Source: an uncultured Clostridia bacterium
GTDB taxonomy: Bacteria; Bacillota; Clostridia; TANB77; CAG-508
DNA length: 64,000 nt
Assembly (NCBI GenBank): GCA_944386685.1
Contig: CALXCA010000001.1
Coordinates: 78,105 to 142,104, forward strand
Direction of reading: 5' to 3'
Positions 8,801 through 48,658 of this stretch are shown in pieces; within the stretch, counting starts at the first letter, position 1; every line of letters starts with the position of its first letter. Below the pieces are notes generated by a model. The model had not been told where the DNA came from. It did not search any database and worked only from the letters and a program-made list of their open reading frames with translations. A program made the position numbers and the translations under genes.

Positions 8801-11338
8801 TACTATTACATAATATCTTCCTTCTGGTACATCTTCAAATGTATATCTACCGTCATTATTTGTTTGTTTTGTAATTATTGCTCCTCTTGAGTTTTGTAAA
8901 AATTGTTGTGTATCTAAATTATATAAATATACTGTTAATCCTTTTTCATATTGTTCTCCATCATCTATTTTTCCATTTTCATTATCATCTAGCCATGCTA
9001 AACCTGTAATTGAATATGTATTTGTTGTAGGTTCATTTGGTTGATTTGGATCTTCTGGTTGTTCTGGAGTTGTAGGATCTGTTGATGGGTCATCTGGTAA
9101 ATCAGGATTTGGTGGATTTACAACAACTTCTTTCTCTCCAGATTCTTTAAATACTGTATTTGTAATAATATTTGATTCTCTAGTTTTTATTTCCTCTCCA
9201 GATACTGTTGCTTGGTTTTCTATTATTTCATTATATTCCTCTTCTTCAATTAATTTTACTCTTGTTTTTATTGTTAAAGTTATACTTTCTCCATTTTTTA
9301 TATTTAATGGTATGGTTATTCTAGGCTCTTTACTACTATCTTTTTCATTTGCTTCTTTTAATTGGATTCCATTCCATACTCTGTTAACTGGTGTTACTGT
9401 TGTTACAAATTTACTGCCTTCTTCTTCAACTGTATTTCTAACATCATTATCATTATATTGTACTTCTAATATTTCTAATATATTTGGAATATAGTCTTCA
9501 AAATTAACTGCTGTATAACCTCCAAAACTTTCTTGTGCTGAACCTATATTTTCTATTGTATATACATATGTTAGTTCATCTAATGGTTCTAATTTTTCTC
9601 CATTTTTTTCTGATGTTTGTGTTATTTTTACTGCTTCCCTTGAACCTTCTACTACTACTTCATTAGATTTATATTCATTTCCTCTTCCTCCATCTACTGA
9701 AACATTTGCAGAAAGTCTTACTTTATAAGAATAATTATCAGTATCTTCCATTAAGTTTTTTGTTTTAAAAGAAACTAATAATGGATATGTTTCATTCATT
9801 TCCTCAATTTTCATTGTAACTAATCCATCTTCACTTATTTCATAAGGTAATTCTTCCATATGATCTAATAATGAATATATTTTTTCTATTTCAAATACTT
9901 CTGGTAATTGAAAAGTAACTGTTGCATTTACATTTTCTAATTCTTCTAAACCAAATAATTTATTGATTCTATATAAAGTTAAATAACAGTTCCAGTTGTT
10001 CCTTGCTACTGTTGATTCTGAGCATGACATTCTTATATTAATTTCATTTAATTTTATACCATGTGTAATTTTATATGTACTTACATTTTCATCTTTTATT
10101 AATGTATTTATTTCTACTTCTACCTTTTCTACATAATCTGGGTTTATGTCTGTATCACGTATTACTTCTATTTTGTCTGAATTTGGATCATATACTTTTT
10201 CATTAATATATTCAAATGCTTCTAATGCTTGTTCTTCTGTTGAATTTGGGTCAATTTCTAATGCAATTTCTCTAACAACGTTTTTTCTAAATTCATATCT
10301 TTCATCTGGTGTCATTGTATCGAAACCATCTGCATTTGTAACTCTTTCATCTAATTCATCAACATATATTTCCATTACTTTATCTTTAAAATCTCTTGTA
10401 TCTAAGTCATCTGTTGGTTGTAATTCAAAAGAATATTCTTGTGTTACACCTGGTTCTATACTTCCAACTTCTATTTCATGTTGCTTTACACTTGAATCTG
10501 GAGCAGTTCCATAACCTATATCACCTGGTTTTAGAGAAACATACCCCATATGTTCTGGAATATTTACTACAATTTTTATATCATCTATTCTTTGGTCTGT
10601 AGTATTTGTTACATTTATTTCATATTTAATTATTTCTAATTCATAAATGATATCGTCATTATTTAATACTGTATCTCCTCTAATAGCTTTTGTTTCTATT
10701 AAAAGACCATTAGCATATGATTTTGTTCCTTCTAAATTATCTACTTCTGATAATGTTTTTATTTCTGCAGAGTTTACTATTTCTAGTTTTTCTTCATATA
10801 TTGCTTCTCCACATTTCATTGTTATATTTGTATCAACAGATTCTATGTCTTGTTTTAACATTATATTAGCTACTACTCTAATATTTGTTCCTTTTATTAT
10901 TCCATCTGTTTGATGCTTTGTTTGTTTTCCTTTTAAAGAAACTTTTATTTGTTGGTTTCCATTTTCATTTGTTTCTACTGTATATTCTCCTAATGTTAAT
11001 TCTTCATCATATAATACTTTAACATCTTCTATTATTACCTTTTCTACTTCTGGTGGTAATTCAAAATATACAGTTGGATTTTCAAACAACTTACTATCTT
11101 CTGTGTCTGTTTCCAACACACCTGTTATAACAACTTCGTTTTGTACTTTATTTGTAAGCTGATTATAACTTAAATTCATACTAATTTTTTCTGCTTCTGC
11201 TGAATTTGAGCTTGCTAAAGCATCAACTGCAAGTGATGCAATTGTGAAAAAATTAGTATTTAAAAATAATGCAATAAGCAATAAAATTGCACACATTTTC
11301 TTGATAATTTGTGCATTATGTTTTTTCTTAGTTTGCAT
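2900..11338 (-). CDS. Giant cell-surface protein (2812 aa) built from two modules
   Basis: N-terminal signal peptide. DUF11-like conserved-repeat motif (LTYVYTIENIGSAQ...EDYIPNIL). Pro/Thr linker (PPNPDLPDDPSTDPTTPEQPEDPNQPNEPT). SdrD-B/Cna-B-like domains (GLAWLDDNENGKIDDGE...TNNDGRYTFEDVPEGRYYV; KVTGNLYFKKVD...LPGVVIEV). Cys-rich region (HWCHCACYEECED). C-terminal TPPTG plus hydrophobic helix plus KKK tail. See findings for the internal anchor and signal peptide. Confidence 0.85.
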   Translation of the reverse strand: MQTKKKHNAQIIKKMCAILLLIALFLNTNFFTIASLAVDALASSNSAEAEKISMNLSYNQLTNKVQNEVVITGVLETDTEDSKLFENPTVYFELPPEVEKVIIEDVKVLYDEELTLGEYTVETNENGNQQIKVSLKGKQTKHQTDGIIKGTNIRVVANIMLKQDIESVDTNITMKCGEAIYEEKLEIVNSAEIKTLSEVDNLEGTKSYANGLLIETKAIRGDTVLNNDDIIYELEIIKYEINVTNTTDQRIDDIKIVVNIPEHMGYVSLKPGDIGYGTAPDSSVKQHEIEVGSIEPGVTQEYSFELQPTDDLDTRDFKDKVMEIYVDELDERVTNADGFDTMTPDERYEFRKNVVREIALEIDPNSTEEQALEAFEYINEKVYDPNSDKIEVIRDTDINPDYVEKVEVEINTLIKDENVSTYKITHGIKLNEINIRMSCSESTVARNNWNCYLTLYRINKLFGLEELENVNATVTFQLPEVFEIEKIYSLLDHMEELPYEISEDGLVTMKIEEMNETYPLLVSFKTKNLMEDTDNYSYKVRLSANVSVDGGRGNEYKSNEVVVEGSREAVKITQTSEKNGEKLEPLDELTYVYTIENIGSAQESFGGYTAVNFEDYIPNILEILEVQYNDNDVRNTVEEEGSKFVTTVTPVNRVWNGIQLKEANEKDSSKEPRITIPLNIKNGESITLTIKTRVKLIEEEEYNEIIENQATVSGEEIKTRESNIITNTVFKESGEKEVVVNPPNPDLPDDPSTDPTTPEQPEDPNQPNEPTTNTYSITGLAWLDDNENGKIDDGEQYEKGLTVYLYNLDTQQFLQNSRGAIITKQTNNDGRYTFEDVPEGRYYVIVEFDTTQYTITDYQKTDVSELTNCDFIQRQAKLPDGQKIVGITDTIELNKNTENIDIGLIKTKTFDLKMEQFVNKITVTNSKGTKEYNFNDEKFAKIEIHSKQFVGSTVVIEYKIRVTNVGELAGSVNEIVAQIPEQLDFHSELNTDWVKSMSYNLSNVSYRTQEIQPGESLEAKLILSKTLDDKSAGTFTNVTKIEISENAKHIEDKNTENDTDSTQVLIGVSTGIKQAMGIIAGIIGFIVILTIIYKILSKKSGINKKTFLIILMMFTVLGFNSRAFADNVQSAVPNQTITNINPATGEPVTGWGWDAFGNDLGALTPEGMAEIAELNANGWIAGKQPCPLGHGVISSTSTTKWNEYQDFINDDGTPKGDISISATLTITGQSTFLANVTVNDWTGAPGDTVITVTCTGGGGTGVVPAGGGTISIPCSGAEFILGATIDAVKTCDTTYIEVTQITTTAEYQAAVHFTDIHSPSPYGCTASNEVHWCHCACYEECEDVEVENDDGTTGTKQECHTNHDNDHPYYDFYGLPLGGTSCSSTFRITKPITYIWDDSTSFGPENFPKKVQINKYDYDTGNVLPGCVFEIDGRTVASGEKIDMIFVGSHTITEIEAPYGYNYEIGKTYTVDISANDTLVTVSVTNKKVTGNLYFKKVDMVTKEPLPGVVIEVLNLLPEDKHGSNGVVRYTTDDNGEVRVYDLLLDEGTEERTFYIREVYNPANGYVVDDADYGKIIDSEGNELKAINHPDYGVVYELKIKRQVSDETGKVLIQAVDKSTGQGVSGLTFDVTGFMRPNSSTTSGGATYTTEVAVPTVTYTTNVNGQIIVPDFLYTSDQTVTVTNTSGRDVEIRDQFGNVITGNSVVVKANDPNEEQIGSNIFQTNIFTIENEMKYAKVSGTVWDDGQYNARNNLLEDSDIRLPKVKVYLHDPVNNVVHETWTDDNGNYVFGIRTDKTYDFGTTPGSDDANYKDTHVLLRRASEYWVEFEYNGVKYRNVDLNSDPKLYDVSKASEEISSGNSDEDATQRIQLNERFSIIDAKDQINGNGESTGKVIDPAGTEYPDQISYQSEEQHRSSIQYGKNMQTPEGNPEAYGEDIYHIKATTYKNYDFKTYYDPIRNTTGYSDEIKAVNLGLYLREQVDLEIESDLARIDLNVNGYNHVYKYGTLIVQSDDTNLEERFQNIKNMYYQRLTHESTIVYSGNNGTTGENGDVYADVTYKIYLENNSDTLKSKINEITVNYNSELEAISYNFEGEPAVQTTDGTNINGTMKELILNLNNLPNKTINNKSQEVLEVTFRAKADVIATILQDNIVLNLNGETYTGLKLDFMAEIKSYSTYSNNEEKLQGRNDTTLYEYASIDQDSAPRNAQVEIDDQNRFITDTFEDDTTIAPTIIFTTGSQTSISGTVFEDKAEEEKLAENQRLGNGIYDDGESVMSNVKVELLLVPVGANEMYDSTMARDNVTSKHTYEVSKLYKTDGTGKQPLIEDAVTWTDENGNYTFEGVVADNYVIRYTYGENISGEGKSTLIFNNGTQVKNDPIKAREYKSTIITSDYIRKAINTSNDGIPHLNGDWSEGDTETSWFLNDNLGTRYSDGVDDVEYRAYHEQSARLNNENVNDSSKYSYSEMEAYTPYIQLGVEQFNDQNIDSTLSSQENGIIDHEFKLQNIDFGLIERPIVNLRVDKQTTDLELTLGNGQVLIKGDPSNPDSDLPYVRPGIEDFVPIEMDTELINGSTIKQEYTISITNDSELDYPIYAITNDTDVANERNYYYYGEKGSMPVGVRIGMLGDYLTPDIDVDLDELKRGGWDVVEVKDLTEHKVMEATGEKTYRLITEDVEKALVEGKYILFTSDSFSDPNDSLVPIGETKAIKYDVSKLLSASDEMKYTNDVEILEYIGYSQNKDKNENTYNRVNDTTPGNLIPEHAKETDEDSVRTTITPPTGVIISNIIYITTIGIGLIVLVIGVIFIKKKVLNK

Positions 11339-11759: not shown

Positions 11760-14700
11760 TTATAATACAAACCTCTTAATTAATACAATTCCTACTAATA
11801 CAATTGCTAATAATCCTAAACCTAATCCAAAGAAGGTTTTTGCAATACCTGTTGAAACTGCTAATATAACTTGTGCTGTATCTATATCATCTTCTCCTGG
11901 TACTTGATTATCAGGTGTTGAATCTTTATCTGGAACATCATGTTCATTATCATCTTCTGATATTTCTGCTGTATTTGTTTTTAGTGCTAAGTTATTTTCT
12001 CCATTTATCCATGTTAATATAACTTCTACTGTTGCACTTTCTCCTGGTTGTAATAATGTTCCTTCAAGTAGTCTTGTAGAAATAACATTGTTTCCTTCAT
12101 CTGTCCATCCTGGATTGTCTGCTGCTTCAAATCTTAAGCCTTCTGGTACATAATCTGTTATTTCTGTTGCATATCCTGCAATATCTCCTTCATTGGTTAT
12201 TTTTATTCCAAATCCGAATTTTACTACAACATCACTTAGTTTTTTTCTGTGTAATTCAACTTTTACAAGTGGTTCTGGATCTTCTGTTCCATCATATCCT
12301 GTTTCAGATACTTTTTCTTGACCATCTTCTATAACAATTACTTTTGTTACATATTTTAGTAATGCTAAATCAAAATATTCTACTTTAACATTTTCTATGT
12401 CTTGGTCATCTTCTCCTTCATTCCACTCATCTGGAGTTGAATCTTCATCATCTATTTCTTCTCCATCTTCATCTGTATCATCAGATATTTGTGCATGGTT
12501 TGTTATTATATAAGAATTTGAGTTAGGATCTTTTACTTTAAATGCTATTTGTACATCATGATATGATAAGTTATCTATATTTCCATCAAATGCATTTAGT
12601 AAAAATTCTCCATCTTCTGTTTCATTTTCTTTAGATAAATATGTTGTTTTTACTTTAACTGCTTCATCTACATTTTCTGTTTCATTTCCATCAGCATCAT
12701 ACATTTTCCATAAGTATTGGATATTTGTTTCATGTTCTGGTAAAAATTCTAAATATTCTGGAATATCATCTGTTATTTCACTTGCATATCCTGAAGTTTC
12801 TCCTTCATTATATACTCTTATTGTATATGTTACAACATCATCAACATGTAATAAAACAGGTTCTTTTGTATGTTCATATGTTATTTTACCATCTTCGTAT
12901 TTTACTTGTGGTACTCTTGTTGTAACATCAGTTTCCCCAACTTGTGTGATGAATTTTCTTAGTGCTAAATCAAATACTGGTACATATATTTTTTCAAAGT
13001 CGTCATCGTCTTCGTTTCCTGGTACATAATCTTTTCCTATTTCTTCATCTTTATATGTTGGTAAGTCACTGTCTTCTGGTAAATATCCATCTTCTTCCAT
13101 GTTGTCAGATTCTGAATCTATGTCTTCTTCTATTATTGTTTCTCCATATTTGTATTCAGATATTTCTGCTATATTTGTTAATTTATCTCCTTGTTGAACT
13201 TCTTCTGTTACAATACATTCTATTTTTACATCTGTATAGTCTAATTCCCCTGAAGTTTTATCAAATTTTTCTAGTTCTGTATTTGCTGTATAAGTTGTAA
13301 TAACTTTTCTACCATCTTCTGATACTGTCCAGCCGTAGTCTTTATTTATTTGACTGTTTTCATCAAATTGTAAATGTGGTGGTAAATAGTCTGTTATTTC
13401 ACTTGCATATCCATCTATGCTTCCTTCATTATATACTCTTATTGTATATATTACATGGTCTCCAACTTTTACTTTTAAAGGTTCTTTTGTATGGTTATAT
13501 ATTGCTGTTGTTCCTGTTCCATCTACTAATGGTGTTACATCTACATCTGGCTCTCTTGTATATGTTCCGTCATTATCTTTTAGTTCTTTATCATTTACGG
13601 CTGTAATGAATTTTCTTAAGCTTAAATCTAATGTTGGAATATATATTTTTTCAAAGTCGTCATCATCTTCGTTTCCTGGTACATAATCTTTTCCTATTTC
13701 ATTGTCTTTATAATCTGGTAAATCCTTATCATCTGGTAAATAATTATCTTCTTCCATATTGTCTGATTCTGAATCTATGTCTTCTTCTACTATTGTGTCA
13801 TCATATTTGTATTCAGATATTTCTGCTATATTTGTTAATTTATCATTTGGTTTTACTTGTGGTGTTACTATACATTCTATTTTTACATCTGTATAGTCTA
13901 ACTCTCCTGTAGTTTTATCAAATGCTTTTAATTCTGTATTTGCTGTATAATTTGTTACTACTTTTCTTCCATCTTGTGATACTGTCCATCCGTAGTCTTT
14001 ATTTATTTGGCTATTTTCGTCAAATTGTAAATATGGTGGTAAATAGTCTGTTATCTCACTTGCATATGCATCTATACTTCCCTCGTTATATACTCTTATT
14101 GTATATATTACGTGGTCATCTATATCTACTTGTACAGGCTCTTTTGTGTGATTATATATTGCTGTTGTATCTGTTCCATCTATTAATGGTGTTACATCTA
14201 CATCTGGCTCTCTTGTATATGTTCCATCTGCTTCTTTTAGTTCTTTATCATTTACGGCTGTAATGAATTTTCTTAGACTTAAGTCTAAATATTGTAATTT
14301 TACTTTTTCTATGTCTTCATCGTCTTCCCCTAACCATTCATCTGGTGTTGAGTCTATATCATCTATTTCTTCTCCATTTTCATCTGTATCATCAGATATT
14401 TGTGCATAGTTTGTTAATATTCTATCTGATGTTTGAGGTTCTACTACTTTACATAGTACTGGAACATCTATGTAATCTGGGTTTTGCTCACTTATATTTC
14501 CATCTGGATTTAATGCTTGTAATAAAGCTTTTTCTCCTTTTTCTTCTGCCATTCCGTCTTTTTTAAAGTAGTCTGTTGTAATTACTGTTTTTCCTAATGA
14601 GTCTTGATAACTTTCTACATTCCATAAGTAATCTGCATTTATACTACTATCTACTACATATTCTAATCCTTCTGGAATTGAGTCTTTTATTAGGCTTGCA

Positions 14701-17075
14701 TATCCATTTATTTCTCCATGATTATATACTCTTATTGTGTATAATACATAATCTCCAGTTTGTACTAGTACTGGTGTTTTATCATGGTCTTTAAACATTA
14801 CTGTATCTGTAATTTGTTCTCCATTTACTGTTGTTCCAACTTGGTCTCTATGGTAAATTCCAGTTACTATTGGTGCTCTTGTAAACGTTTTTCCATCTGC
14901 TTCTAGTAAATATTCATCATCTTCTATTGTAGGTCCATCATGACTTACTGCTGCTATAAATTTCTTTAAGCCTAGATCAAATATTTTTTTCTCTGGTAAT
15001 AGTTCTAGTTTTTCAAAGTCATCATCATCTTGTTCACCCTCATAATATTTATTACTATCTCCTAATTCGTCTTTTTTGTAATCATCTTTTCCTGTATATC
15101 CTACATCTTCTCCTGATGTATTTAATGAACTATTATTTACATTTGGAGAGTTGTCTGGTTGTGAATCTCTATCATCAATATTAGAGTCGTTAGAGTCTTC
15201 TGCTATCCATGCAACATTTGTTAGTGTTACTGTATTTTCTTTTATTTCGCTTTCATCACCTGTTGAAATAACTGGTGTTTCTTGTGTTACTCTACATTTA
15301 AATGTTATTGTTTCCCAATCTAGTTCTTCTCCAACAACTGTATGTGCTTTTAGGTCATTTACTTCTACAGAATCATCTATTGTGAATAATATTGTTTTTG
15401 GTTTTAATGTTTCTCCTCCAACTACTAAGCTTGATGATGTTGGATTATATGATGATTTGTATGTATTTGTTTTTCCATCTTTTCTTGTTGATGTATATAC
15501 TCCACCATTTTCTTCTATAAATTGTAATCCATCTGGTAATTGGTCTATTATTTTACTTGCATATCCATCAATTAGTCCCTCATTATATACTGTTATAGAA
15601 TATGTTACTATGTCTCCTGTTTTTATTGTTACAGGGTCTTTTCTATGTGCATAATGTGCTGTTGTTGATGTTGTATCTAATGGAGTTACTGTAACTACAG
15701 GTTTTCTTGTATCTATTGTTACTTTTTGTCCATCTCTTGTAATTTCTGCTATATTTTTACGTAATGCTAAATCGAAGTCTGTTGTGTCTGCTGTAAATTC
15801 TACTTCTATTGTTTCTGGTTTTCTATTAATTTCTACCAATGGTTGTTCTCCATCAAGTGTTATTTCTGTATCTGTTTCTGTTCCTTTTAGCCATAATGTT
15901 TTTTGTGTTGTTGTGTTTGTAATACTAACAGAAATGTTTACCTTATTGTTATTGCTTTTATCAAATGTTAAATAAAATTCTTGGTCATTTTTTATTAGTT
16001 CGTTTATGTCTGTTGCAATTTCATTTCCATTTACATCTGTAAATTTGTAGTCAACATTTTGTCCAGAGCCATTTTGTACTACTAGTTCTACATCATAATC
16101 TGTTGCTCCATTGTTTAAGATTTTTATTGGTCCTACTATATAATTTGTATCTTTTGAGATCATTGTAAGTTTATATTTTCCATCTTGTTGTGTTAATCCA
16201 GATGTATCTATACTAACTCCAGATTGTAATGTATAATTATTTGCATCTGTATATAAACTTGCTCCAGCTTTTGCAGAATCTACTAAGTAGTTATATAATT
16301 TAACTATTTGATCGTTTAAACATGTTCCTTTATCTCCAAGGAATCCATTATCTGCATATACTTCATATGTAAGTCCAGAATCTTCTGTTTTTGTCATCCA
16401 ACCTGTATATCTTGTTCCGTCTGGAGTAACTCCTTCTGTGTAATTATTATATATTTCTTCATTTCCTAATAAATAATTTGTAAAATACCATATTACAGCT
16501 TTTTGAACTGCTATTACTTCTGTTTCTGAAAGTGGTGTTGGCTCATTATACATTGCATAGAAATTTGCATCTATACCTGCTTTTGTTAAATAATCTGTAA
16601 TATTCTCTCCTGGTATATAAAAATTATCTAATAACCATAATAATTCTCTATATACTGGTCCACTTGGGTCTAAAAGCTCTTTTATTAAGTCGCTATTTCC
16701 ATTATCCACCAATCTATCTAATAAGCTTTGTCTTTCTTTTTGTAAATCATAATATAAATTATATTCTACAATTCCTTCTGGATTTCTTCCATTATCCCAT
16801 GTTTCTCCATAATCTGCCTTAATACAATATAAGTTTCTTGGATTTGTTACTTTATCTGTAATATTATTGGAATTATATTGGTTTAATTCCCATATATATT
16901 TTCCATTTATTTGGATTGGGTCTCCAATTCCATATCCTATTCCGGAATCATTTGCTTTTCCTAAGTTTACATATATTGTAGCATCATTTTTGGCATAACT
17001 TATTACATATGTTAGTGATACACATAATATTGCTATTATTGCTACAAAAAGCCAGATTTTTCTTTTCATAATCAA
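11760..17075 (-). CDS. Repeat-rich surface adhesin (1771 aa) with a possible N-terminal thioester-type domain
   Basis: Signal peptide MIMKRKIWLFVAIIAILCV. Cys84 (NLYCIKADYG) and Gln191 (TEVIAVQKAVIWYFTN) resemble the thioester-domain Cys/Gln pair. There are about 7 DUF11-like repeats (DL[SA]LRKFI...VIYTIRVYNEG.I.GYASEITDYLP..LQF) separated by acidic DxDSxPD/EDDDDFEK linkers. The C-terminus is VILAVSTGIAKTFFGLGLGLLAIVLVGIVLIKRFVL. Confidence 0.85.
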   Translation of the reverse strand: MIMKRKIWLFVAIIAILCVSLTYVISYAKNDATIYVNLGKANDSGIGYGIGDPIQINGKYIWELNQYNSNNITDKVTNPRNLYCIKADYGETWDNGRNPEGIVEYNLYYDLQKERQSLLDRLVDNGNSDLIKELLDPSGPVYRELLWLLDNFYIPGENITDYLTKAGIDANFYAMYNEPTPLSETEVIAVQKAVIWYFTNYLLGNEEIYNNYTEGVTPDGTRYTGWMTKTEDSGLTYEVYADNGFLGDKGTCLNDQIVKLYNYLVDSAKAGASLYTDANNYTLQSGVSIDTSGLTQQDGKYKLTMISKDTNYIVGPIKILNNGATDYDVELVVQNGSGQNVDYKFTDVNGNEIATDINELIKNDQEFYLTFDKSNNNKVNISVSITNTTTQKTLWLKGTETDTEITLDGEQPLVEINRKPETIEVEFTADTTDFDLALRKNIAEITRDGQKVTIDTRKPVVTVTPLDTTSTTAHYAHRKDPVTIKTGDIVTYSITVYNEGLIDGYASKIIDQLPDGLQFIEENGGVYTSTRKDGKTNTYKSSYNPTSSSLVVGGETLKPKTILFTIDDSVEVNDLKAHTVVGEELDWETITFKCRVTQETPVISTGDESEIKENTVTLTNVAWIAEDSNDSNIDDRDSQPDNSPNVNNSSLNTSGEDVGYTGKDDYKKDELGDSNKYYEGEQDDDDFEKLELLPEKKIFDLGLKKFIAAVSHDGPTIEDDEYLLEADGKTFTRAPIVTGIYHRDQVGTTVNGEQITDTVMFKDHDKTPVLVQTGDYVLYTIRVYNHGEINGYASLIKDSIPEGLEYVVDSSINADYLWNVESYQDSLGKTVITTDYFKKDGMAEEKGEKALLQALNPDGNISEQNPDYIDVPVLCKVVEPQTSDRILTNYAQISDDTDENGEEIDDIDSTPDEWLGEDDEDIEKVKLQYLDLSLRKFITAVNDKELKEADGTYTREPDVDVTPLIDGTDTTAIYNHTKEPVQVDIDDHVIYTIRVYNEGSIDAYASEITDYLPPYLQFDENSQINKDYGWTVSQDGRKVVTNYTANTELKAFDKTTGELDYTDVKIECIVTPQVKPNDKLTNIAEISEYKYDDTIVEEDIDSESDNMEEDNYLPDDKDLPDYKDNEIGKDYVPGNEDDDDFEKIYIPTLDLSLRKFITAVNDKELKDNDGTYTREPDVDVTPLVDGTGTTAIYNHTKEPLKVKVGDHVIYTIRVYNEGSIDGYASEITDYLPPHLQFDENSQINKDYGWTVSEDGRKVITTYTANTELEKFDKTSGELDYTDVKIECIVTEEVQQGDKLTNIAEISEYKYGETIIEEDIDSESDNMEEDGYLPEDSDLPTYKDEEIGKDYVPGNEDDDDFEKIYVPVFDLALRKFITQVGETDVTTRVPQVKYEDGKITYEHTKEPVLLHVDDVVTYTIRVYNEGETSGYASEITDDIPEYLEFLPEHETNIQYLWKMYDADGNETENVDEAVKVKTTYLSKENETEDGEFLLNAFDGNIDNLSYHDVQIAFKVKDPNSNSYIITNHAQISDDTDEDGEEIDDEDSTPDEWNEGEDDQDIENVKVEYFDLALLKYVTKVIVIEDGQEKVSETGYDGTEDPEPLVKVELHRKKLSDVVVKFGFGIKITNEGDIAGYATEITDYVPEGLRFEAADNPGWTDEGNNVISTRLLEGTLLQPGESATVEVILTWINGENNLALKTNTAEISEDDNEHDVPDKDSTPDNQVPGEDDIDTAQVILAVSTGIAKTFFGLGLGLLAIVLVGIVLIKRFVL
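12975..14289 (-). repeat. Two tandem ~657-bp (219-aa) near-identical repeat units inside the 1771-aa gene
   Basis: Units begin LDLSLRKFITAVNDKELK(EA/DN)DGTYTREPDVDVTPL and end NEDDDDFEKIY(I/V)P. The spurious plus-strand ORFs 12962.. and 13631.. are near-identical with a 657-nt offset. Confidence 0.8.
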
Positions 17076-32222: not shown

Positions 32223-34187
32223 TTATAATTCTATAAATTTAAAATTAATTAAATTTTGCTCTAAAATTGTTCGTTCTCTTTTTGTACATGTAAAAATAAT
32301 TATCTGCTTATTATAATATTCTTTATCTAAAAATAATAATATATTTTTTAATCTTTCATCATCAAAATATGCAAATGTTTCATCTAAAATTATTGGCATA
32401 TTTTCTTTCGTAATTTCATCTAACATTGCTAATCTTAAAGAAAGATATAATTGGTCAATTGTACCTATGCTTAATCTTTCTGCTGGAATATAATTTCCAT
32501 TATCTAATTCTACAATTAAACCTTGTTCATCATTAAAAATTAATCTATTATATTTATTATTAGTTATTTTTGAAATTATAGTAGATAATTTATTTGTAAA
32601 TTCTGGGCTAATGTCATTTTTCATTTTTTCATATGCTTTTTCAAATAAATTTTTTGCAAGTTCTATTGATTCATTTTCTTCATTTAATTCTGATAGTTGT
32701 TGTGATAATATTTCTTGTTCTTCCTCTAAATTTGATAAATTTTCTAATTCTTTTTCTATATTATCTTTTTTAAATTCTAATTTATTTAATTCATATTTAA
32801 AATTGTCAATTTTATTTTCAATTAATATAGTATTTTTTTCTATATTATTATAATTTATTATTTCATTTATTTCTTCTTTATTTAATTTTATTGAATATTT
32901 TTTTATTAAATTATTTTTTTCTGAATTAAATAAAAATATATTTTTATTTTTTTCTTTTTCTATTTCATTATTTATTTTTTCAAAATTTTCATTAATTAAT
33001 TTATATTGATTATTTAATTCATTAATTTCTTTTTGATTATTTTCCAAATTATTATTTATATTATTTTTTATTTTTTTAATTTTTTTATTTATATTTATTA
33101 TTTTAAATAAATATATAAAAATAATTATTAAAATTGGCAAAAACAAAATATATTTTAAATAATTTATTTTTTCTGGAATAAATATAAAACTAATAATATT
33201 TAATATGATTAAAATAAATAATATTAAATTATATTTTTTAAATATTTTATTTTTTATTTTTTTATTTTTTTCTAATAAATCATTATTATTTTTTATATCA
33301 TTATTTTCTAAATTTTTATTATTTATTTTTTTATTTAAATCTATTTTTTTATAATTATTTTCTTCATTAATTTTTTCTTTTATTTTCATTTTTTCTTCAT
33401 TTATTTCTGTTTTATCATAAATATTTTTTATTTCTTTTAATAAATTATTTTTTATATTTTCTTTATTAATTTTATTTTCTATTTCATTTATTTTTTCCTG
33501 AATTTCAAATTGAATATTTTTATTATTTTTTAATTCTTCTATTTTTTTATTATTTTCTTCTAATTTTTTTTGTATTATATTTATTGGCTTTTCTCTGCTT
33601 CTTTCTGTTCCAATTTTTTCCAATTGTATTTTGTTTAATTTGTCTATCGTCTTTTGGTATGATACATTATCTTCCCCTGTTCCCAATAGGTTTGAAATTT
33701 TCTGAATCATCATATATTGATTCTCTCTCCCAATTTTTACCTCTTGTTGTTGAGAAACAGCTGTTGATAAATACATATTTAGATTAAAATTTGTTTGCTC
33801 ATAAAAAAATTCGCTTCCATTTTTTTTATTTATATTATATTCATCAGAAATTTCGTTTCCTTTTTCGTCAAATATTTTTGGATTTTTTTTATTAAATTCT
33901 CTAAATATTTCATATTTATTTTTATTTTCTAATTCATAAATTATTTTTCCAGAATATTCTGTACTATCCCATGGTGCATATTTTTCAAAATCAGAAATTT
34001 CTTTTCCATTTTTATTTTTAGAAATTCCAAATAAAATATTATTTATAAAATTTACTATTGTTGATTTTCCACTTTCATTTTTTCCATAAATAATATTTAA
34101 ATGATTTTCTAAATTAATTTCTTTATTTTTTATTTTTCCATATGAATTTATTTTTATTTTATTTATTTTCAAAATAAATCCCTCCAT
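32223..34187 (-). CDS. SbcC/YhaN-like SMC-type ATPase with a central TM hairpin
   Basis: Walker A GKNESGKST. C-terminal LSIGTIDQLYLSLRLA plus IILDETFAYFDD. Asn/Lys/Glu-rich coiled coil interrupted by YNLILFILIILNIISFIFIP...YILFLPILIIIFIYLF. Confidence 0.75.
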   Translation of the reverse strand: MEGFILKINKIKINSYGKIKNKEINLENHLNIIYGKNESGKSTIVNFINNILFGISKNKNGKEISDFEKYAPWDSTEYSGKIIYELENKNKYEIFREFNKKNPKIFDEKGNEISDEYNINKKNGSEFFYEQTNFNLNMYLSTAVSQQQEVKIGRENQYMMIQKISNLLGTGEDNVSYQKTIDKLNKIQLEKIGTERSREKPINIIQKKLEENNKKIEELKNNKNIQFEIQEKINEIENKINKENIKNNLLKEIKNIYDKTEINEEKMKIKEKINEENNYKKIDLNKKINNKNLENNDIKNNNDLLEKNKKIKNKIFKKYNLILFILIILNIISFIFIPEKINYLKYILFLPILIIIFIYLFKIININKKIKKIKNNINNNLENNQKEINELNNQYKLINENFEKINNEIEKEKNKNIFLFNSEKNNLIKKYSIKLNKEEINEIINYNNIEKNTILIENKIDNFKYELNKLEFKKDNIEKELENLSNLEEEQEILSQQLSELNEENESIELAKNLFEKAYEKMKNDISPEFTNKLSTIISKITNNKYNRLIFNDEQGLIVELDNGNYIPAERLSIGTIDQLYLSLRLAMLDEITKENMPIILDETFAYFDDERLKNILLFLDKEYYNKQIIIFTCTKRERTILEQNLINFKFIEL

Positions 34188-34206: not shown

Positions 34207-35277
34207 TTATTCTAAAATTTCCATTCCTATTTCAAATGCTCTATTAATTATATTTTTATTATATGGATTATTTTCTAATTCTTTTAATATTTCTTTTGCA
34301 AATAATCCTCTTAAATTATTTTCTTTTGATATTTTTTCTATATTATAATTAATTGTTGTTTTATTTTTTATTTTTATTATTTTTTCATCTAATTGATATT
34401 TATATATATCATTAATATTTATTTCAAAATTTCTTTTTCCTGTTAATATTATTTCATATAAATTATTATTTAAAAAAGTTAAGAAATTTATTTTTTCAAT
34501 TAATTCTTCTATAGAATTTATTTCTGTACAATTTATTTCTGTTTTTTCAAATTGAATATCATCTAATTTTATGAATTTCAATTTATTTTTTTGTTTTGTT
34601 ATTTCTCCAACAACCATTCCATGTTCACCTAATTCATCAAATCCCATTGCAATTGTTGAACCTGGATATATTATTTTTCCATGTTCCTCGAAATTATTTT
34701 TATGAATATGTCCTAATGCAATATAATCAAAACCTTTTCCTTCAAGACTTTTTTTACTCATAGAATTATATTGCATATCTTCTAGATTTGCTCCGTCTAA
34801 AGTTCCATGAATAATTAATATATTAATTTTATTTTTATTTTCTATATTAAATTGGTTGAAATTTAAACCAGAACAATAAAAATCATTAAATCCAAATCCA
34901 TATATATCTGCTTCTTCTGTTTCTACTTTTTGTAATTCTGAAGTAAATATATGTACATTATCATTCCAGATAAAATTATTATAAAAAGAATTTTTTAAAA
35001 ATGGGTCATGATTTCCTGGTGAAATAAAAATTTGTGTTTCGCCTATTTCTTTAAATAATTCATTTAAATATTCGATAGTTGATTTTCTCACATATTCATG
35101 TTCATATAAATCTCCAGATATAAAAAAATATTTTGTATGGTTTTCTTTTATATATTCTATTATTTTTTTTAATATTTTTCTTTGGTCATATCTCCTTTGT
35201 TCACCTATACCATTTTTATCTGAAAGCATTTTAAATTGTGCATCTAAATGCATATCTGCTATATGTACAAAATTCAT
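34207..35277 (-). CDS. SbcD/Mre11-family nuclease (YhaO-like)
   Basis: Calcineurin-like phosphoesterase motifs: HIADMHLD, ISGDLYE, PGNHD, IIHGT, LGHIH. Confidence 0.85.
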   Translation of the reverse strand: MNFVHIADMHLDAQFKMLSDKNGIGEQRRYDQRKILKKIIEYIKENHTKYFFISGDLYEHEYVRKSTIEYLNELFKEIGETQIFISPGNHDPFLKNSFYNNFIWNDNVHIFTSELQKVETEEADIYGFGFNDFYCSGLNFNQFNIENKNKINILIIHGTLDGANLEDMQYNSMSKKSLEGKGFDYIALGHIHKNNFEEHGKIIYPGSTIAMGFDELGEHGMVVGEITKQKNKLKFIKLDDIQFEKTEINCTEINSIEELIEKINFLTFLNNNLYEIILTGKRNFEININDIYKYQLDEKIIKIKNKTTINYNIEKISKENNLRGLFAKEILKELENNPYNKNIINRAFEIGMEILE

Positions 35278-35513: not shown

Positions 35514-35535
35514 AAGGCTACTTTACAGTAGCCTT
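35514..35535 (-). terminator. Hairpin terminator after the coupling-protein gene
   Basis: AAGGCTACT-gtaa-AGTAGCCTT, followed by TT on the minus strand. It lies 17 nt after the stop at 35552. The T-tract is short. Confidence 0.5.
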
Positions 35536-35551
35536 AGTTTAGATTAATATC

Positions 35552-37627
35552 TTATTCATTATCATCATCAATTGGTCCAAATAATTCATCAAATTTAGCT
35601 TCTAATTCTTTTTGTAAATCATATGTATCTTCTTCATCAACAATTGGTGCTTGTTTTGGAATTTCTTCTTGTTCTATATCTCCAAATGCATCTTCAGAAA
35701 TTGTTGCAATATTATTTGTATTTTGTTGTTCTTCATTTCTTGAATTTACATTTAAGTTATTGTTTTCTGCTTTTATTTTTTGTACTTTATTTGGTACTTC
35801 TTCTTTTTGTTCTGATTGTTCATCATCAAATAAATCATCTAATGATTCTATTTTCATATCTTTAACTTGATTTTCTGTTTTGTCTTCAGTCCATGGATTA
35901 TATGGATTAAATTTTCTCCATGTTCCACGGTCTATCTGACCTATATCATTATGACTTATTTCTGCTCTTCTTAAACTGTTTTCCATATTTTTATGTTTAA
36001 AATAATAAAATTTATTTGCTTTTACTGGTTTTATTCCTTTTTCAAAAATAATACATAAATCATTATCTAATCTTCTTAATTCATCTGGTGTCATAAGTGC
36101 TCTTGCCATTACTTGGTCTGAATCACTTGTTCCTGTTCTATGATGTTGTTTATCTCTATTTATAGATATACTTTCTCTTTCAATTGTTTTTTCCCCTAAT
36201 GCTTTTGAGAAATATTCTACTGTTTTATAAGAGTTACTTCCTAAAAATACGTGTGTGTCACAGTTACCTATTATTGTTTCATATGATTTATCATATATTG
36301 CTTCTAATTGGTCTAAGTTTTGTAATATAACACTAAATGATATTTTTCTACTTCTTGATGTTGATATTTTTTTATCAAAATCTGGAATTTTCCCTATATT
36401 GGCAAACTCGTCTAATATAAAGTATGTTGGAACTTTTAATTTTCCTCCATTATCATCTGCAAAATTGTATAGTTGTTGTATCATCTGTGCAAAGAAAATT
36501 GTTAGTAAAAAGTCATATGCTGTATGTGTATCTGAAGATATTACATATACAGCTGTTTTTTTACTTCCTATATCCTCAAATTTAATTGTGTCTGTTGATG
36601 TTAATTCTGCAATTTCTTTTGAGTCAAACTTACCTAATTTTGATTGTAATGTACTTAAAATTGAACTATATGTTTTTTCTGGGGCAATTTCTATTGATTT
36701 ATAGTTCATTCTTGCAGGATGGTCATATGGTAATTTACTCATTAATTCTGTTAATAAGTTACTTCCACCATTAGAATTTGCAGCTCTTACAAGTTCTGCA
36801 CAACTTGCTAAGTTTTGCTCTTCTTCTGGTCTTGTTGCCATTAAATAGTAAATTAATGCTTTTAATAACATTTCTGCAGAGTCATCCCAGAATGGATCTG
36901 ATCCTCCAGAATCTGTTTTTTGACCTTTTACTATTGTATTTGCTATAACATCTACATCTATTTCTGAAGAAATATGCATTAATGGATTATAACCATCACT
37001 ATTTTGTGGTTTTACTAAATTTAAAACTTTTATTTCATATCCATTTTGTTTTAAATATCCAGCTGTTCTATCATATAATTCTCCTTTAGGATCTGTAAAT
37101 ACATATGACCCTAGTTGTTGAAAAGCATTAGGTATTGAATATGAAGCAGATTTACCAGATCCAGAACCTCCGACTACTAATACATTTACATTTCCTCTTT
37201 TATCAACTGGTAAATAGTTATCTTCTGCAAGAATTATTCCTTTTTTATTACTTAAAACCTGATATTGCTCTCCATTTCTGCTCCAATCACTTGAACCATG
37301 TTCCATATCAGTATATTCATTTTTTGGTGATGATTTTATTAATCCTATAACCATTAAAATTGCATATATAATTGTAAATAGTCCAATATTTTTTAAATAT
37401 TGTAAAAAAATTCCCTCAGTAAATAGTGTTCCAAAAGATTGGAATATGTGTTGCATTGAATTAACAAGTCCATCAAATCCAGCTGTTATATCATTTTGTA
37501 CTTGTGCCTCATGTATTGCAATTGTTACAGGCATAACTAATACTATGGATATAAATAACCATAGTATTGCAAAAATAATAAAATATTTTCTTGTTCTTCT
37601 GATTGCACCAGATATTTTGTAATTCAT
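35552..37627 (-). CDS. Type IV secretion coupling protein (VirD4/TraG family)
   Basis: Two N-terminal TM helices. Walker A VLVVGGSGSGKSASYSIPN. Walker B YFILDEFANIGKIPDF. Acidic C-terminal tail (...EEDTYDLQKELEAKFDELFGPIDDDNE). Confidence 0.85.
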   Translation of the reverse strand: MNYKISGAIRRTRKYFIIFAILWLFISIVLVMPVTIAIHEAQVQNDITAGFDGLVNSMQHIFQSFGTLFTEGIFLQYLKNIGLFTIIYAILMVIGLIKSSPKNEYTDMEHGSSDWSRNGEQYQVLSNKKGIILAEDNYLPVDKRGNVNVLVVGGSGSGKSASYSIPNAFQQLGSYVFTDPKGELYDRTAGYLKQNGYEIKVLNLVKPQNSDGYNPLMHISSEIDVDVIANTIVKGQKTDSGGSDPFWDDSAEMLLKALIYYLMATRPEEEQNLASCAELVRAANSNGGSNLLTELMSKLPYDHPARMNYKSIEIAPEKTYSSILSTLQSKLGKFDSKEIAELTSTDTIKFEDIGSKKTAVYVISSDTHTAYDFLLTIFFAQMIQQLYNFADDNGGKLKVPTYFILDEFANIGKIPDFDKKISTSRSRKISFSVILQNLDQLEAIYDKSYETIIGNCDTHVFLGSNSYKTVEYFSKALGEKTIERESISINRDKQHHRTGTSDSDQVMARALMTPDELRRLDNDLCIIFEKGIKPVKANKFYYFKHKNMENSLRRAEISHNDIGQIDRGTWRKFNPYNPWTEDKTENQVKDMKIESLDDLFDDEQSEQKEEVPNKVQKIKAENNNLNVNSRNEEQQNTNNIATISEDAFGDIEQEEIPKQAPIVDEEDTYDLQKELEAKFDELFGPIDDDNE

Positions 37628-37651
37628 TTATAAATCACCTTCTCTTTGGTT

Positions 37652-37951
37652 TTATTTTATTGGGTCATCTTCTTTTCCTTTAATATCTCTATCTTTTTTA
37701 GATTTACTTGTGTTATTATCTTTTTTAGCTGTTTTATCTTTTTCTGTATTAGAATATGCTTTTATAACCATATATTCTGTTGGTACAACTTCTCTATATA
37801 GTTTTCCTTTTGCTTCTAATTCAAATAATTGTTTTGTTTCCTCTCCAGCCTTTGCTCCTATTTCTTTAACAGTTTGATTTATTTGCATTCCTACTATAAT
37901 TGTTTTATCTTTTAAACCTGCTGGTCTTTTCTTTACTGTGTGATTCCCCAT
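37652..37951 (-). CDS. Hypothetical 99-aa protein with a Lys/Asp-rich tail (cassette gene 2)
   Basis: ORF 24 nt upstream of the T4CP gene on the same strand. RBS GGAGGATATT before the ATG. No recognised domain. Confidence 0.6.
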   Translation of the reverse strand: MGNHTVKKRPAGLKDKTIIVGMQINQTVKEIGAKAGEETKQLFELEAKGKLYREVVPTEYMVIKAYSNTEKDKTAKKDNNTSKSKKDRDIKGKEDDPIK

Positions 37952-37970
37952 AGTAAAATATCCTCCTTAA

Positions 37971-38486
37971 TTATTCACCTCTTACTTCAAAAGCGAAATA
38001 AGATTTATATGGTTTTAATTTACATTTTCCCTTTACTTTATTTTCTTTTTCATCAAAATAAAGCCTTGGTTTAATTTCTTCTGTAGTTTCAGGATCAATA
38101 ACACATATGTCCCTTTTTAAATTAGGGGTATAGTTAAAATCTTTAAATTCCTGTTCTTCTTCTGAATATAATGTATCAAATTTAAAAGCTGAAGGATTTT
38201 TGGCAATTCTTACTTCATCATCAATCAAAATGCCAGAATTAATAATAACCTTTTCTCCAGCAAACGAAAGAATTGCTAGTTGGTTTCCTTGTGGTTGTGG
38301 ATTATCTACATAAAAAGTTTTTCTTCTTGAGTTTCCCCTTATTTCCTCTGTGTAGTCTAGTCTTTCAACTGTATATTTAGGATATTCTTTCAAAAAGTCT
38401 TTTTCTGTTTTATTTATTTGATAAATAACTGTATTAACACCTTGTGGATCTGTTATACTAAAATGTTTTCCTTGTAACATATCCAT
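37971..38486 (-). CDS. Hypothetical 171-aa protein (cassette gene 1)
   Basis: ORF 19 nt upstream of the 99-aa gene. RBS AGAGAGGAAAA. No recognised domain. Confidence 0.6.
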   Translation of the reverse strand: MDMLQGKHFSITDPQGVNTVIYQINKTEKDFLKEYPKYTVERLDYTEEIRGNSRRKTFYVDNPQPQGNQLAILSFAGEKVIINSGILIDDEVRIAKNPSAFKFDTLYSEEEQEFKDFNYTPNLKRDICVIDPETTEEIKPRLYFDEKENKVKGKCKLKPYKSYFAFEVRGE

Positions 38487-38553
38487 TTTTATTTTCCTCT
38501 CTTTCCATGTTAATCCATAGAATTATCTTTTGTAAAGCAAATTGCCAATATTA

Positions 38554-38582
38554 ATTATATCTTATTTTACTGGCTTTGTCAA
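38554..38582 (-). promoter_or_regulatory. Consensus sigma-A promoter of the 3-gene T4CP cassette
   Basis: Minus strand TTGACA (38582..38577), exactly 17 bp (aagccagtaaaataaga), TATAAT (38559..38554). It sits ~68 nt upstream of ATG 38486. Confidence 0.75.
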
Positions 38583-38710: not shown

Positions 38711-39592
38711 TTAAACTTTTCTAGGATTAAATTTTGATATTTCTTTTAATTTTTTAAATATTTCTTTTTCTTCTTTAGAAATTTTATCTGGAACAACAAT
38801 TTCTATTTTTCCTATTAATTTTCCTCTTTCTCCATTTTTCATTTTATATCCTTTACCTGGAATTTCAAAAACTTCTCCAGATTGTACTCCATTTGGAACA
38901 TAAATTTGTGTTTCAGAATCATCTATTGATTTAACTTTTAATTTTGTTCCAAGTACCGCTTCCCATGGTGTAATTGGAATTACTGTATATAAATCATTAT
39001 TTCTTAGTTGATATTTTTTACTATCTTCTATATTTATTTTAATATATAAATCTCCATTTTTACCACCATTTTTACCTGGTTTTCCTTGACCTGCTAATCT
39101 TATTTTTTCTGAATTTTTAACTCCTTCTGGCAATTTCATTGTGATTTTTTTATTATTATTTTCTATATCTTTTAAAAGTATTGTTTTATTTGCTCCAAAA
39201 AAGCCTTCTTCAATAGTAATATTTATTTCAGTCTCAATGTCTTCTCCATTAATTGCTGGTATTGTTGATTGTCCAATTTCTTCTTTTGTATCATTATTTC
39301 CAAAAAACATTCCAAAAAATTCTCCAGCCATTTGGCTTGTTGTTTTTACATGATTTTTCTTTCTTCCAATTGCATAATTCCATGTTCTATCATACTTACG
39401 CTTTGTTGATGTTTCTGAAAGAATTTTATATGCTTCATTTATGTCTTTTATTTTCTCTTCTGCAAGTTTATTTCCAACATTAACATCTGGATGATATTTT
39501 TTAGCTTGTTTTCTATATGCTGTTTTTATTTGTTCTAATGTAACTCTATTATCTTCTAATTCTAGTATTTTGTAGTAGTCTTTAAATTTCAT
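38711..39592 (-). CDS. J-domain co-chaperone, CbpA-like (no zinc-finger domain)
   Basis: DYYKILELE...KKYHPDVN (HPD) plus a DnaJ C-terminal substrate-binding fold (GEDIETEINITIEE...GKPGKNGGKNGDLYIKI). Confidence 0.8.
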   Translation of the reverse strand: MKFKDYYKILELEDNRVTLEQIKTAYRKQAKKYHPDVNVGNKLAEEKIKDINEAYKILSETSTKRKYDRTWNYAIGRKKNHVKTTSQMAGEFFGMFFGNNDTKEEIGQSTIPAINGEDIETEINITIEEGFFGANKTILLKDIENNNKKITMKLPEGVKNSEKIRLAGQGKPGKNGGKNGDLYIKINIEDSKKYQLRNNDLYTVIPITPWEAVLGTKLKVKSIDDSETQIYVPNGVQSGEVFEIPGKGYKMKNGERGKLIGKIEIVVPDKISKEEKEIFKKLKEISKFNPRKV

Positions 39593-46993: not shown

Positions 46994-47129
46994 GGTGTGA
47001 TTCCTAATCTCTCTATGGAAAGCAATTCTCACATAAAAGTATCTACTTATTGCTGCTTCCTCCCGGACCTGACAAGATTCATAGGCTTCTATTGAGTTTG
47101 CTCTCCATACAGAGGTCAGTGATCATACC
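46994..47129 (-). ncRNA. ffs: Signal recognition particle RNA (short, 4.5S-like, ~136 nt)
   Basis: Minus strand contains GUCAGGUCCGGGAGGAAGCAGC (domain IV motif). The 5' 32 nt pair with the 3' 32 nt (25 Watson-Crick plus 2 G.U by hand). The 5' end sits 7 nt after a consensus promoter. Classical tadA-ffs-dnaX synteny. Confidence 0.85.

Positions 47130-48582: not shown

Positions 48583-48658
<76 letters not shown>

Follow-up and report, generated by a model that had tools for sequence, protein, structure and literature searches.

Type IV coupling proteins (T4CPs) count as components of machinery for conjugation or effector secretion, and a T4CP kept for long without a type IV secretion system (T4SS) nearby would be new. 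Recruitment of an adaptor by the tail has been described for two such proteins: the C-terminus of F-plasmid TraD binds TraM, and the acidic tail of Legionella DotL binds IcmS/IcmW (PMC7434980). Within the same superfamily, the membrane-anchored hexameric ATPases SpoIIIE/FtsK and Streptomyces TraB move DNA without a T4SS channel (PMC3158045). Here we describe a three-gene cassette with a T4CP gene in a 64,000-nt stretch of contig CALXCA010000001.1 from an uncultured Clostridia bacterium. This whole stretch is referred to as the window; its G+C content is 25% and its numbering is used throughout. Three consecutive minus-strand open reading frames (ORFs), spaced 19 nt and 24 nt apart, encode a 171-aa protein (p171, 37971-38486), a 99-aa protein (p99, 37652-37951) and the 691-aa T4CP (35552-37627), exactly as the first-pass annotation of this DNA had claimed. 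We are highly confident that the cassette serves a function, is non-mobile and has been inherited vertically.

The largest product had been read as a VirD4/TraG-type T4CP with two N-terminal transmembrane helices, Walker A and B motifs and an acidic tail, and each of these points holds. In Pfam it matches T4SS-DNA_transf (PF02534, E 2e-88, 297.7 bits with a cut-off of 20.1), TraG-D_C (9e-39) and TrwB_AAD_bind (3e-26), and in NCBIfam it scores 451.7 bits, with a cut-off of 250, to NF045973, the ‘VirD4-like conjugal transfer protein, CD1115 family’. Beyond these curated sequence thresholds, it has the N-terminal anchor of the family and both Walker motifs intact. A Kyte-Doolittle scan places the two hydrophobic segments of the anchor at aa 12-43 and 73-101 (37325..37594), and reading of the sequence places Walker A, GGSGSGKS, at aa 153-160 (37148..37171) and Walker B, YFILDE, at aa 402-407 (36407..36424), all on the minus strand. 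The C-terminal tail is acidic, with an isoelectric point (pI) of 4.1. Conjugative T4CPs of the CD1115 family, from Clostridium perfringens pSXP-169_2 and from a Monoglobus pectinilyticus replicon, score above the same cut-off and share with the cassette protein the two N-terminal membrane segments, the nucleotide-binding domain, an all-alpha domain and the acidic C-terminus. However, the cassette T4CP is only 32-37% identical to them, and it is chromosomal and vertically inherited. Compared with the translocases of the FtsK/HerA superfamily the cassette protein is a T4CP, its match to Pfam FtsK_SpoIIIE being below threshold (E 0.089, 12.7 bits, cut-off 24), and no gamma-like DNA-recognition domain was seen in it.

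Relatives were sought in one genome per GTDB species. T4CP relatives are present in 274 species genomes, and the loci analysed here are the best 80 of these, with T4CPs 64-96% identical. All of the relatives' genomes are described as metagenome-assembled genomes (MAGs), one, OV788638.1, being listed as a complete 1.55-Mb chromosome, and nearly all of the best 80 are labelled uncultured Clostridia, Clostridiales or Clostridium and come from the gut of humans, rabbits, goats and chickens. The exact T4CP sequence of the window was found in 66 blocks of a public assembly collection, with the same gene order in all eight of the places shown. A p171 orthologue lies just upstream of the T4CP gene in 75 of the best 80 loci. 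The first-pass annotation had proposed a synteny check for the cassette between the cbpA-like gene/murF and sbcD, and this was borne out in part: the cassette recurs in at least 75 species-level genomes, and in its common setting a J-protein gene lies upstream, with sbcD downstream in 36 loci and prfA directly downstream in 19. Two other settings were found. In one locus (L041) an ABC-F ATPase gene lies upstream and HNH, SDR and AddB genes downstream, and in a deep lineage (L091, L092 and L094; 28% G+C) the cassette lies between a VanW-like gene upstream and dnaX-ybaB-recR downstream. The deep lineage has the order beta-domain protein, 55-aa ORF and T4CP, preceded by a near-consensus promoter (TTGTAA-17-TATAAT). 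Identity to the window copies there is about 30% for p171 and about 42% for the T4CP. For the latter, plasmid T4CPs are more distant (34-36%, ~290 bits) than the cassette clade is (42%, ~500 bits).

The identity of the T4CP to the window copy tracks that of dnaJ, murF, prfA, recR, sbcD, ypeB and the MGDG-synthase gene, with Spearman rho values of 0.70-0.85, and both the T4CP and p171 are better conserved than MurF or the J-protein. Against close relatives, the ratio of nonsynonymous to synonymous substitution rates (dN/dS) is 0.016-0.10 for p171, 0.085-0.19 for the T4CP, 0.17-0.22 for murF and 0.31-0.65 for p99. Regional conservation of the T4CP was scored in 20-residue blocks over 71 orthologues. 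The membrane anchor is the least conserved folded region (19-58%), the ATPase and all-alpha region (aa 101-540) mostly reaches 84-99% per block with one block at 69%, and the Walker A and Walker B blocks are each 96% conserved. Over aa 601-660 column identity falls to 11-20% with many gaps, and the extreme C-terminus is conserved again.

The promoter has been kept as well. The perfect TTGACA-17-TATAAT element reported in the first pass (38554..38582, minus strand) is the single 12/12 consensus match of the region, an AT-rich one in which promoter-like sites are generally not enriched (32 found, 33 expected). Of 75 orthologous loci 72 have it without a mismatch, for the most part 70-82 nt 5' of the start codon, with a spacer whose sequence varies freely. 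Judged by known consensus sequences, this is a promoter of the housekeeping-sigma (sigma-70/sigma-A) type and not of the sporulation-sigma type, and for this reason a spore-specific role, which had been suggested for the cassette, is not favoured. Directly 5' of the ribosome-binding site the leader carries a hairpin, TTCTATG-GATTAA-CATGGAA (38503..38522, minus strand). Most of the 74 orthologous leaders have a similar hairpin about 20 nt 5' of the start, and variants of the stem preserve pairing (for example AATATGG/CCATATT). The hairpin might serve to stabilise the mRNA or to control translation. At the other end, the hairpin said to close the unit was found at 35514..35535; it is terminator-like, with a 9-bp stem containing four G-C pairs and a short minus-strand T-run. 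No RNA family was recognised within the cassette in an Rfam scan.

The identity correlation, the dN/dS values, the regional conservation and the conserved promoter lead us to view the cassette as a vertically inherited gene set under housekeeping-level constraint. Two origins had been offered for it, a domesticated translocation module and a decayed integrative and conjugative element (ICE), and the vertical descent and selection seen in about 75 species speak for the first of these and against the second. An element in decay, surviving by chance in this genome, would suit a T4CP family of conjugative origin, in which the closest matches on plasmids share 32-37% identity and bear the same family name in their annotation, and it would also suit the frameshift or stop found in three MAG copies. 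However, the cassette is kept in about 75 species plus the deep lineage with low dN/dS, and neither relaxase nor conjugation-gene remains were found nearby, nor an integrase domain in the window. Degenerate Walker motifs or frameshifts in orthologues had been named as signs of a pseudogenised remnant; the Walker motifs are near-invariant and intact, and lesions are confined to 3 of about 78 MAG copies. Because of the vertical inheritance, the purifying selection, the intact Walker motifs and the promoter conserved in about 75 species, we reject ICE decay as extremely improbable.

The company kept by the T4CP also sets it apart from the conjugative members of its family. In both of the conjugative CD1115-family elements examined, the T4CP gene belongs to a MobC-relaxase-PcfB/DUF3801-T4CP-PrgI-VirB4 array, with VirB4 and PrgI within a few kb. 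These array neighbours are lacking here: tblastn searches with relaxase, MobC, PcfB, PrgI and VirB4 (CD1110) gave no match in the 64-kb window or in the 80 orthologous loci (up to 22 kb each), and Pfam searches over the window found no integrase, relaxase or T4SS domain. The first-pass statement that no relaxase, VirB4 or integrase gene lies close by thus stands for the window, and the T4SS and relaxase partners that form the context of the family were found neither there nor at the 80 loci. By domain content, tblastn searches and distribution the locus does not classify as an ICE or mobilisable element, attachment-site repeats not having been searched for.

An unlikely alternative is that the T4CP is the substrate receptor of a T4SS encoded elsewhere on the chromosome and likewise domesticated, for example for DNA release, DNA uptake or effector delivery, with p171 acting as its adaptor and p99 as its cargo or chaperone. 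A channel containing VirB4 is the partner of every T4CP characterised so far, and a tail with an adaptor is a design typical of effector-translocating systems such as DotL-IcmSW; moreover, our search was limited to the window and about 22 kb round each orthologue. Against this, in both real elements examined only a few kb separate the T4CP from VirB4-like CD1110 and PrgI, no such genes were seen in the 64 kb or in any of the three genomic contexts, and the genomes of the clade are small, as illustrated by the complete chromosome of 1.55 Mb.

The tail of the T4CP combines extreme variability with a fixed end. T4CP orthologues terminate in YDLQKELEAKFDELFG followed by a few acidic residues, and about 60 hypervariable acidic residues precede this motif. 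In the window copy, column identity and pI delimit the hypervariable, low-complexity acidic linker to about aa 601-668 (35624..35827, minus strand), and the orthologue alignment places the motif at aa 669-684 (35576..35623, minus strand). The core of the motif, QKELEAKFDELFG, is identical in all but 3 of about 78 orthologues, these having one or two residue differences or an in-frame stop, and the T4CPs of the deep lineage carry the motif as FDLQEELEKKFDELFG. It is absent from the two conjugative plasmid-type T4CPs checked, and a tblastn search of the tail against plasmids gave no match. The tail also holds a second, semi-conserved acidic-aromatic motif, SLDDLFDD (aa 595-602; 35820-35845, minus strand), and more distant orthologues have a third, DAPILPM. 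These two motifs may be docking sites for further partners.

Neither small protein of the cassette had shown a recognisable motif in the first pass, and profile searches agree. Against Pfam, NCBIfam, PADLOC and PHROG p171 has no significant match, nor does p99, for which the sole hit listed was at chance level (PHROG, E 0.079). p171, which is soluble, is 59-98% identical across loci, with 46 invariant columns. Its AlphaFold2 (AF2) model, built from a shallow alignment, is all-beta with a predicted local distance difference test score (pLDDT) of 62.8; a Foldseek search of the PDB with this poor model returned noise only, and a p171 profile run against PDB sequences gave only chance-level matches to SBDS. 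The usual gene order suggested that p171 might be a diverged PcfB/DUF3801 protein. This candidate was rejected, as there was no Pfam match and hhalign gave probabilities of 0.05% and 1% with two PcfB/DUF3801 proteins. No relatives of p171 were found on 72,556 plasmids or among 2.9 million viral contigs. The sequence of p171 shows no detectable similarity to any Pfam family or solved structure, and hence none to TraM or IcmS/W.

When 1.84 billion representative proteins were searched with p171 in HMMER, there were 333 matches, including stand-alone proteins down to 27% identity. In 40 proteins of 377-1049 aa the p171 domain is internal (E 1e-12 to 1e-22). Pfam recognised Sel1 repeats in 19 of the 19 large proteins scanned, and an N-terminal TIR or Ser/Thr kinase domain in a subset. 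Upstream of the p171 domain, at a distance of 59-100 residues, 24 of the 40 multidomain proteins carry the pattern ELxxxFxELFG, for example as NADEELEAKFEELFGP in P0295 and VDDELDAKFEEIFG in P0249; the pattern occurred in 2.5% of shuffled upstream regions, and the 24 control windows taken downstream had none. Built into a profile, the 24 fusion motifs pick out aa 669-685 of the T4CP tails at 20-23 bits; of about 1450 ORFs, the highest-scoring true control reached 8.9 bits. The profile does not match the plasmid T4CPs. When the profile search was reversed, the top four matches were fusion proteins. The AF2 model of the TIR fusion P0249 (41 sequences) has an overall pLDDT of 81, with about 90 in the beta domain, and shows the motif as a helix (pLDDT about 90) with disordered stretches on either side. 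This model matched the PDB only via its TIR domain.

The fusion family itself (P0218-P0321, P0325-P0364, and 8001-9494 of L124) is unannotated and comes from MAGs of gut Clostridia, a few of them labelled Lachnospiraceae. Its members are ordered as a variable N-terminus (TIR, Ser/Thr kinase or other), ELxxxFxELFG, the p171-like beta domain and Sel1 repeats. Some large relatives have an RNxxAH motif in their C-terminal region, which raised the thought of a HEPN domain there; this was set aside as unconfirmed, with a single sub-threshold Pfam match (E 0.014).

The cassette and the TIR or kinase-Sel1 proteins of gut Clostridia (P0249, P0235 and P0260) thus share both the p171 beta domain, at 27-46% identity, and ELxxxFxELFG. 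In the latter proteins motif and domain stand in one chain, flanked by the TIR or kinase domain and the Sel1 repeats, whereas in the cassette the ATPase tail bears the motif and a protein of its own forms the domain. The one TIR/kinase-Sel1 locus that was inspected is a solitary gene without an ATPase. Because many proteins unite motif and domain in a single chain, while here they are divided between two presumably co-transcribed proteins, we propose with moderate confidence that the T4CP tail recruits p171. The arrangement resembles TraD-TraM and DotL-IcmSW in that an acidic, disordered T4CP C-terminus has a short conserved motif at its end and is co-encoded with a small soluble protein. It differs from them in that binding between p171 and the tail is deduced from fusion proteins and no relaxosome or effector set is known.

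The third gene has a different character. A middle ORF of 63-122 aa is present in all usable loci and ends 23-36 nt 5' of the T4CP start. p99 is hypervariable, with short islands that recur, [KR]xPAG..D near the N-terminus and IKAY.GG further on. Its orthologues are mostly basic (median pI 8.9), and it has no hydrophobic segment. p99 could be a disordered accessory factor, a regulator or a cargo.

A role in conflict or defence was also weighed, in which incoming DNA of conjugative elements or phages would be sensed or intercepted by the T4CP-like ATPase, with p171 as a signalling domain, as in the TIR/kinase-Sel1 proteins, and p99 as an arms-race component. It draws on the fact that the p171 domain and the tail motif otherwise occur in TIR, Ser/Thr kinase and Sel1 (possibly HEPN-like) proteins, an architecture typical of immune and conflict proteins, as well as on the fast evolution of p99 and on the only PADLOC match of the T4CP, a weak one to mad8 (28.9 bits, 1.9e-7). 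That match, however, is expected of any T4CP-like P-loop domain and lies far below the T4CP match itself. Patchy distribution, mobility and clustering in islands are typical of defence systems, whereas the cassette has a fixed locus among housekeeping genes and descends vertically, with p171 and the ATPase very strongly constrained by purifying selection. It also lacks an effector domain, and the absence of p171 relatives from the viral contigs and plasmids searched points the same way. We consider a defence function quite improbable.

Our best explanation holds that a T4CP gene of conjugative-element origin has settled as a chromosomal operon that is fixed and passed on vertically in a large clade of spore-forming gut Clostridia with small genomes of very low G+C. 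We lean, by a little over even chances, towards its product being a domesticated, constitutively expressed T4CP motor with p171 on its tails and no dedicated neighbouring channel. A strong housekeeping-type promoter would transcribe the unit constitutively, and the T4CP would form a membrane-anchored hexameric ATPase. Each subunit would extend a long disordered acidic tail ending in the helical motif, which would recruit the co-encoded p171 much as TraD recruits TraM and DotL recruits IcmSW, with p99 as a third component, whether accessory, regulator or cargo. The whole would act as a stand-alone, ATP-driven recruitment or translocation motor, independent of any neighbouring T4SS. As substrate, nucleic acid or nucleoprotein is favoured with low confidence since the nucleotide-binding and all-alpha (substrate- or DNA-binding) domains are the most conserved; this is the weakest step of the scheme. 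More tentatively, the captured conjugative T4CP may have become a stand-alone, constitutive and quasi-essential membrane motor throughout an order-level clade of uncultured, genome-reduced gut Clostridia, moving DNA or protein across or along the membrane without a T4SS channel, with the short acidic-aromatic ELxxxFxELFG helix docking on a new beta domain and the same module reused in Clostridia TIR/kinase-Sel1 proteins.

Several observations weigh against the domesticated motor. No T4CP is known to function in the absence of a channel, although its relatives FtsK/SpoIIIE and Streptomyces TraB manage without one. A T4SS could be encoded in parts of the genome beyond the window and the roughly 22 kb searched round each orthologue. 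The tail motif may bind another factor or be a different kind of signal, and the TIR, kinase and Sel1 homes of the p171 domain look signalling- or conflict-like, which is a poorer fit to a housekeeping motor. Finally, the T4CP gene is interrupted in the three MAG copies mentioned above, by frameshifts in L064 (~10356) and L088 (~10461), one of which falls within the Walker A codons, and by an in-frame stop within the tail motif in L086 (~5560). As the downstream reading frames stay conserved, these are likely to be sequencing or assembly errors, the other possibility being very recent lesions.

The flanks of the cassette are as described in the first pass: a CbpA-type J-domain protein and MurF on one side, and an SbcD-like protein, an AAA_27 Rad50-like protein and PrfA on the other. 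The J-domain gene (38711-39592, minus strand) encodes a J domain and DnaJ_C without a zinc finger, and in 74 of the 80 loci it is the immediate upstream neighbour of the cassette. It was considered as a fourth member of the unit and rejected, since it is separated by a promoter boundary of its own, is not beside the cassette in L041, and in L091 lies 5 kb away on the opposite strand. The linkage may be ancestral synteny only. A functional link to the adjacent Mre11/Rad50-like pair had also been suggested and is not upheld, as the SbcD and AAA_27 genes do not adjoin the cassette in many loci, prfA directly follows the T4CP in 19, and two other lineages differ in neighbourhood. The functional unit is the three genes, with the J-protein and the SbcD/Rad50-like pair as neighbours and not members.

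The Rad50-like AAA_27 protein (32223-34187, minus strand), whose partner gene encodes the SbcD-like phosphoesterase (34207-35277), has two strongly hydrophobic segments in mid-protein (aa 314-370), at the position expected of the coiled coil, and weak PADLOC matches to LmuB/PbeC. Going by its sequence, it would be a Rad50-like protein inserted in the membrane. According to Pfam, the genes of the window are housekeeping or sporulation genes, with MinC, PBP2, MreBCD, RadC, MecA, PcrA, PrfA, MurF, YpeB, DnaX-YbaB-RecR, SpoIIR, MurA and Coat_F among their products. Two giant surface proteins are predicted as well, one of 2812 aa with SpaA/SdrD_B domains (2900-11338, minus strand) and one of 1771 aa with six DUF11 repeats (11760-17075, minus strand). 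The sole Rfam matches across the window are a signal recognition particle (SRP) RNA (47013-47107) and a tRNA gene (48586-48658), both on the minus strand.

Neither this cassette nor the motif-domain module is described in the literature searched, and nor is a stand-alone, vertically inherited or domesticated T4CP. The most informative part of the analysis is the link of p171 to the TIR/kinase-Sel1 proteins: the motif and the domain are a candidate new protein-interaction module connecting an ATPase motor to TIR/kinase-Sel1 proteins, and neither is annotated today. If our explanation is true, the cassette, with selection at housekeeping level, two dedicated partners and a promoter that is perfect and conserved, would clearly exemplify how an ATPase of mobile elements can be put to cellular use. 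It would also provide a tractable entry into the biology of abundant uncultured bacteria of the human and animal gut.

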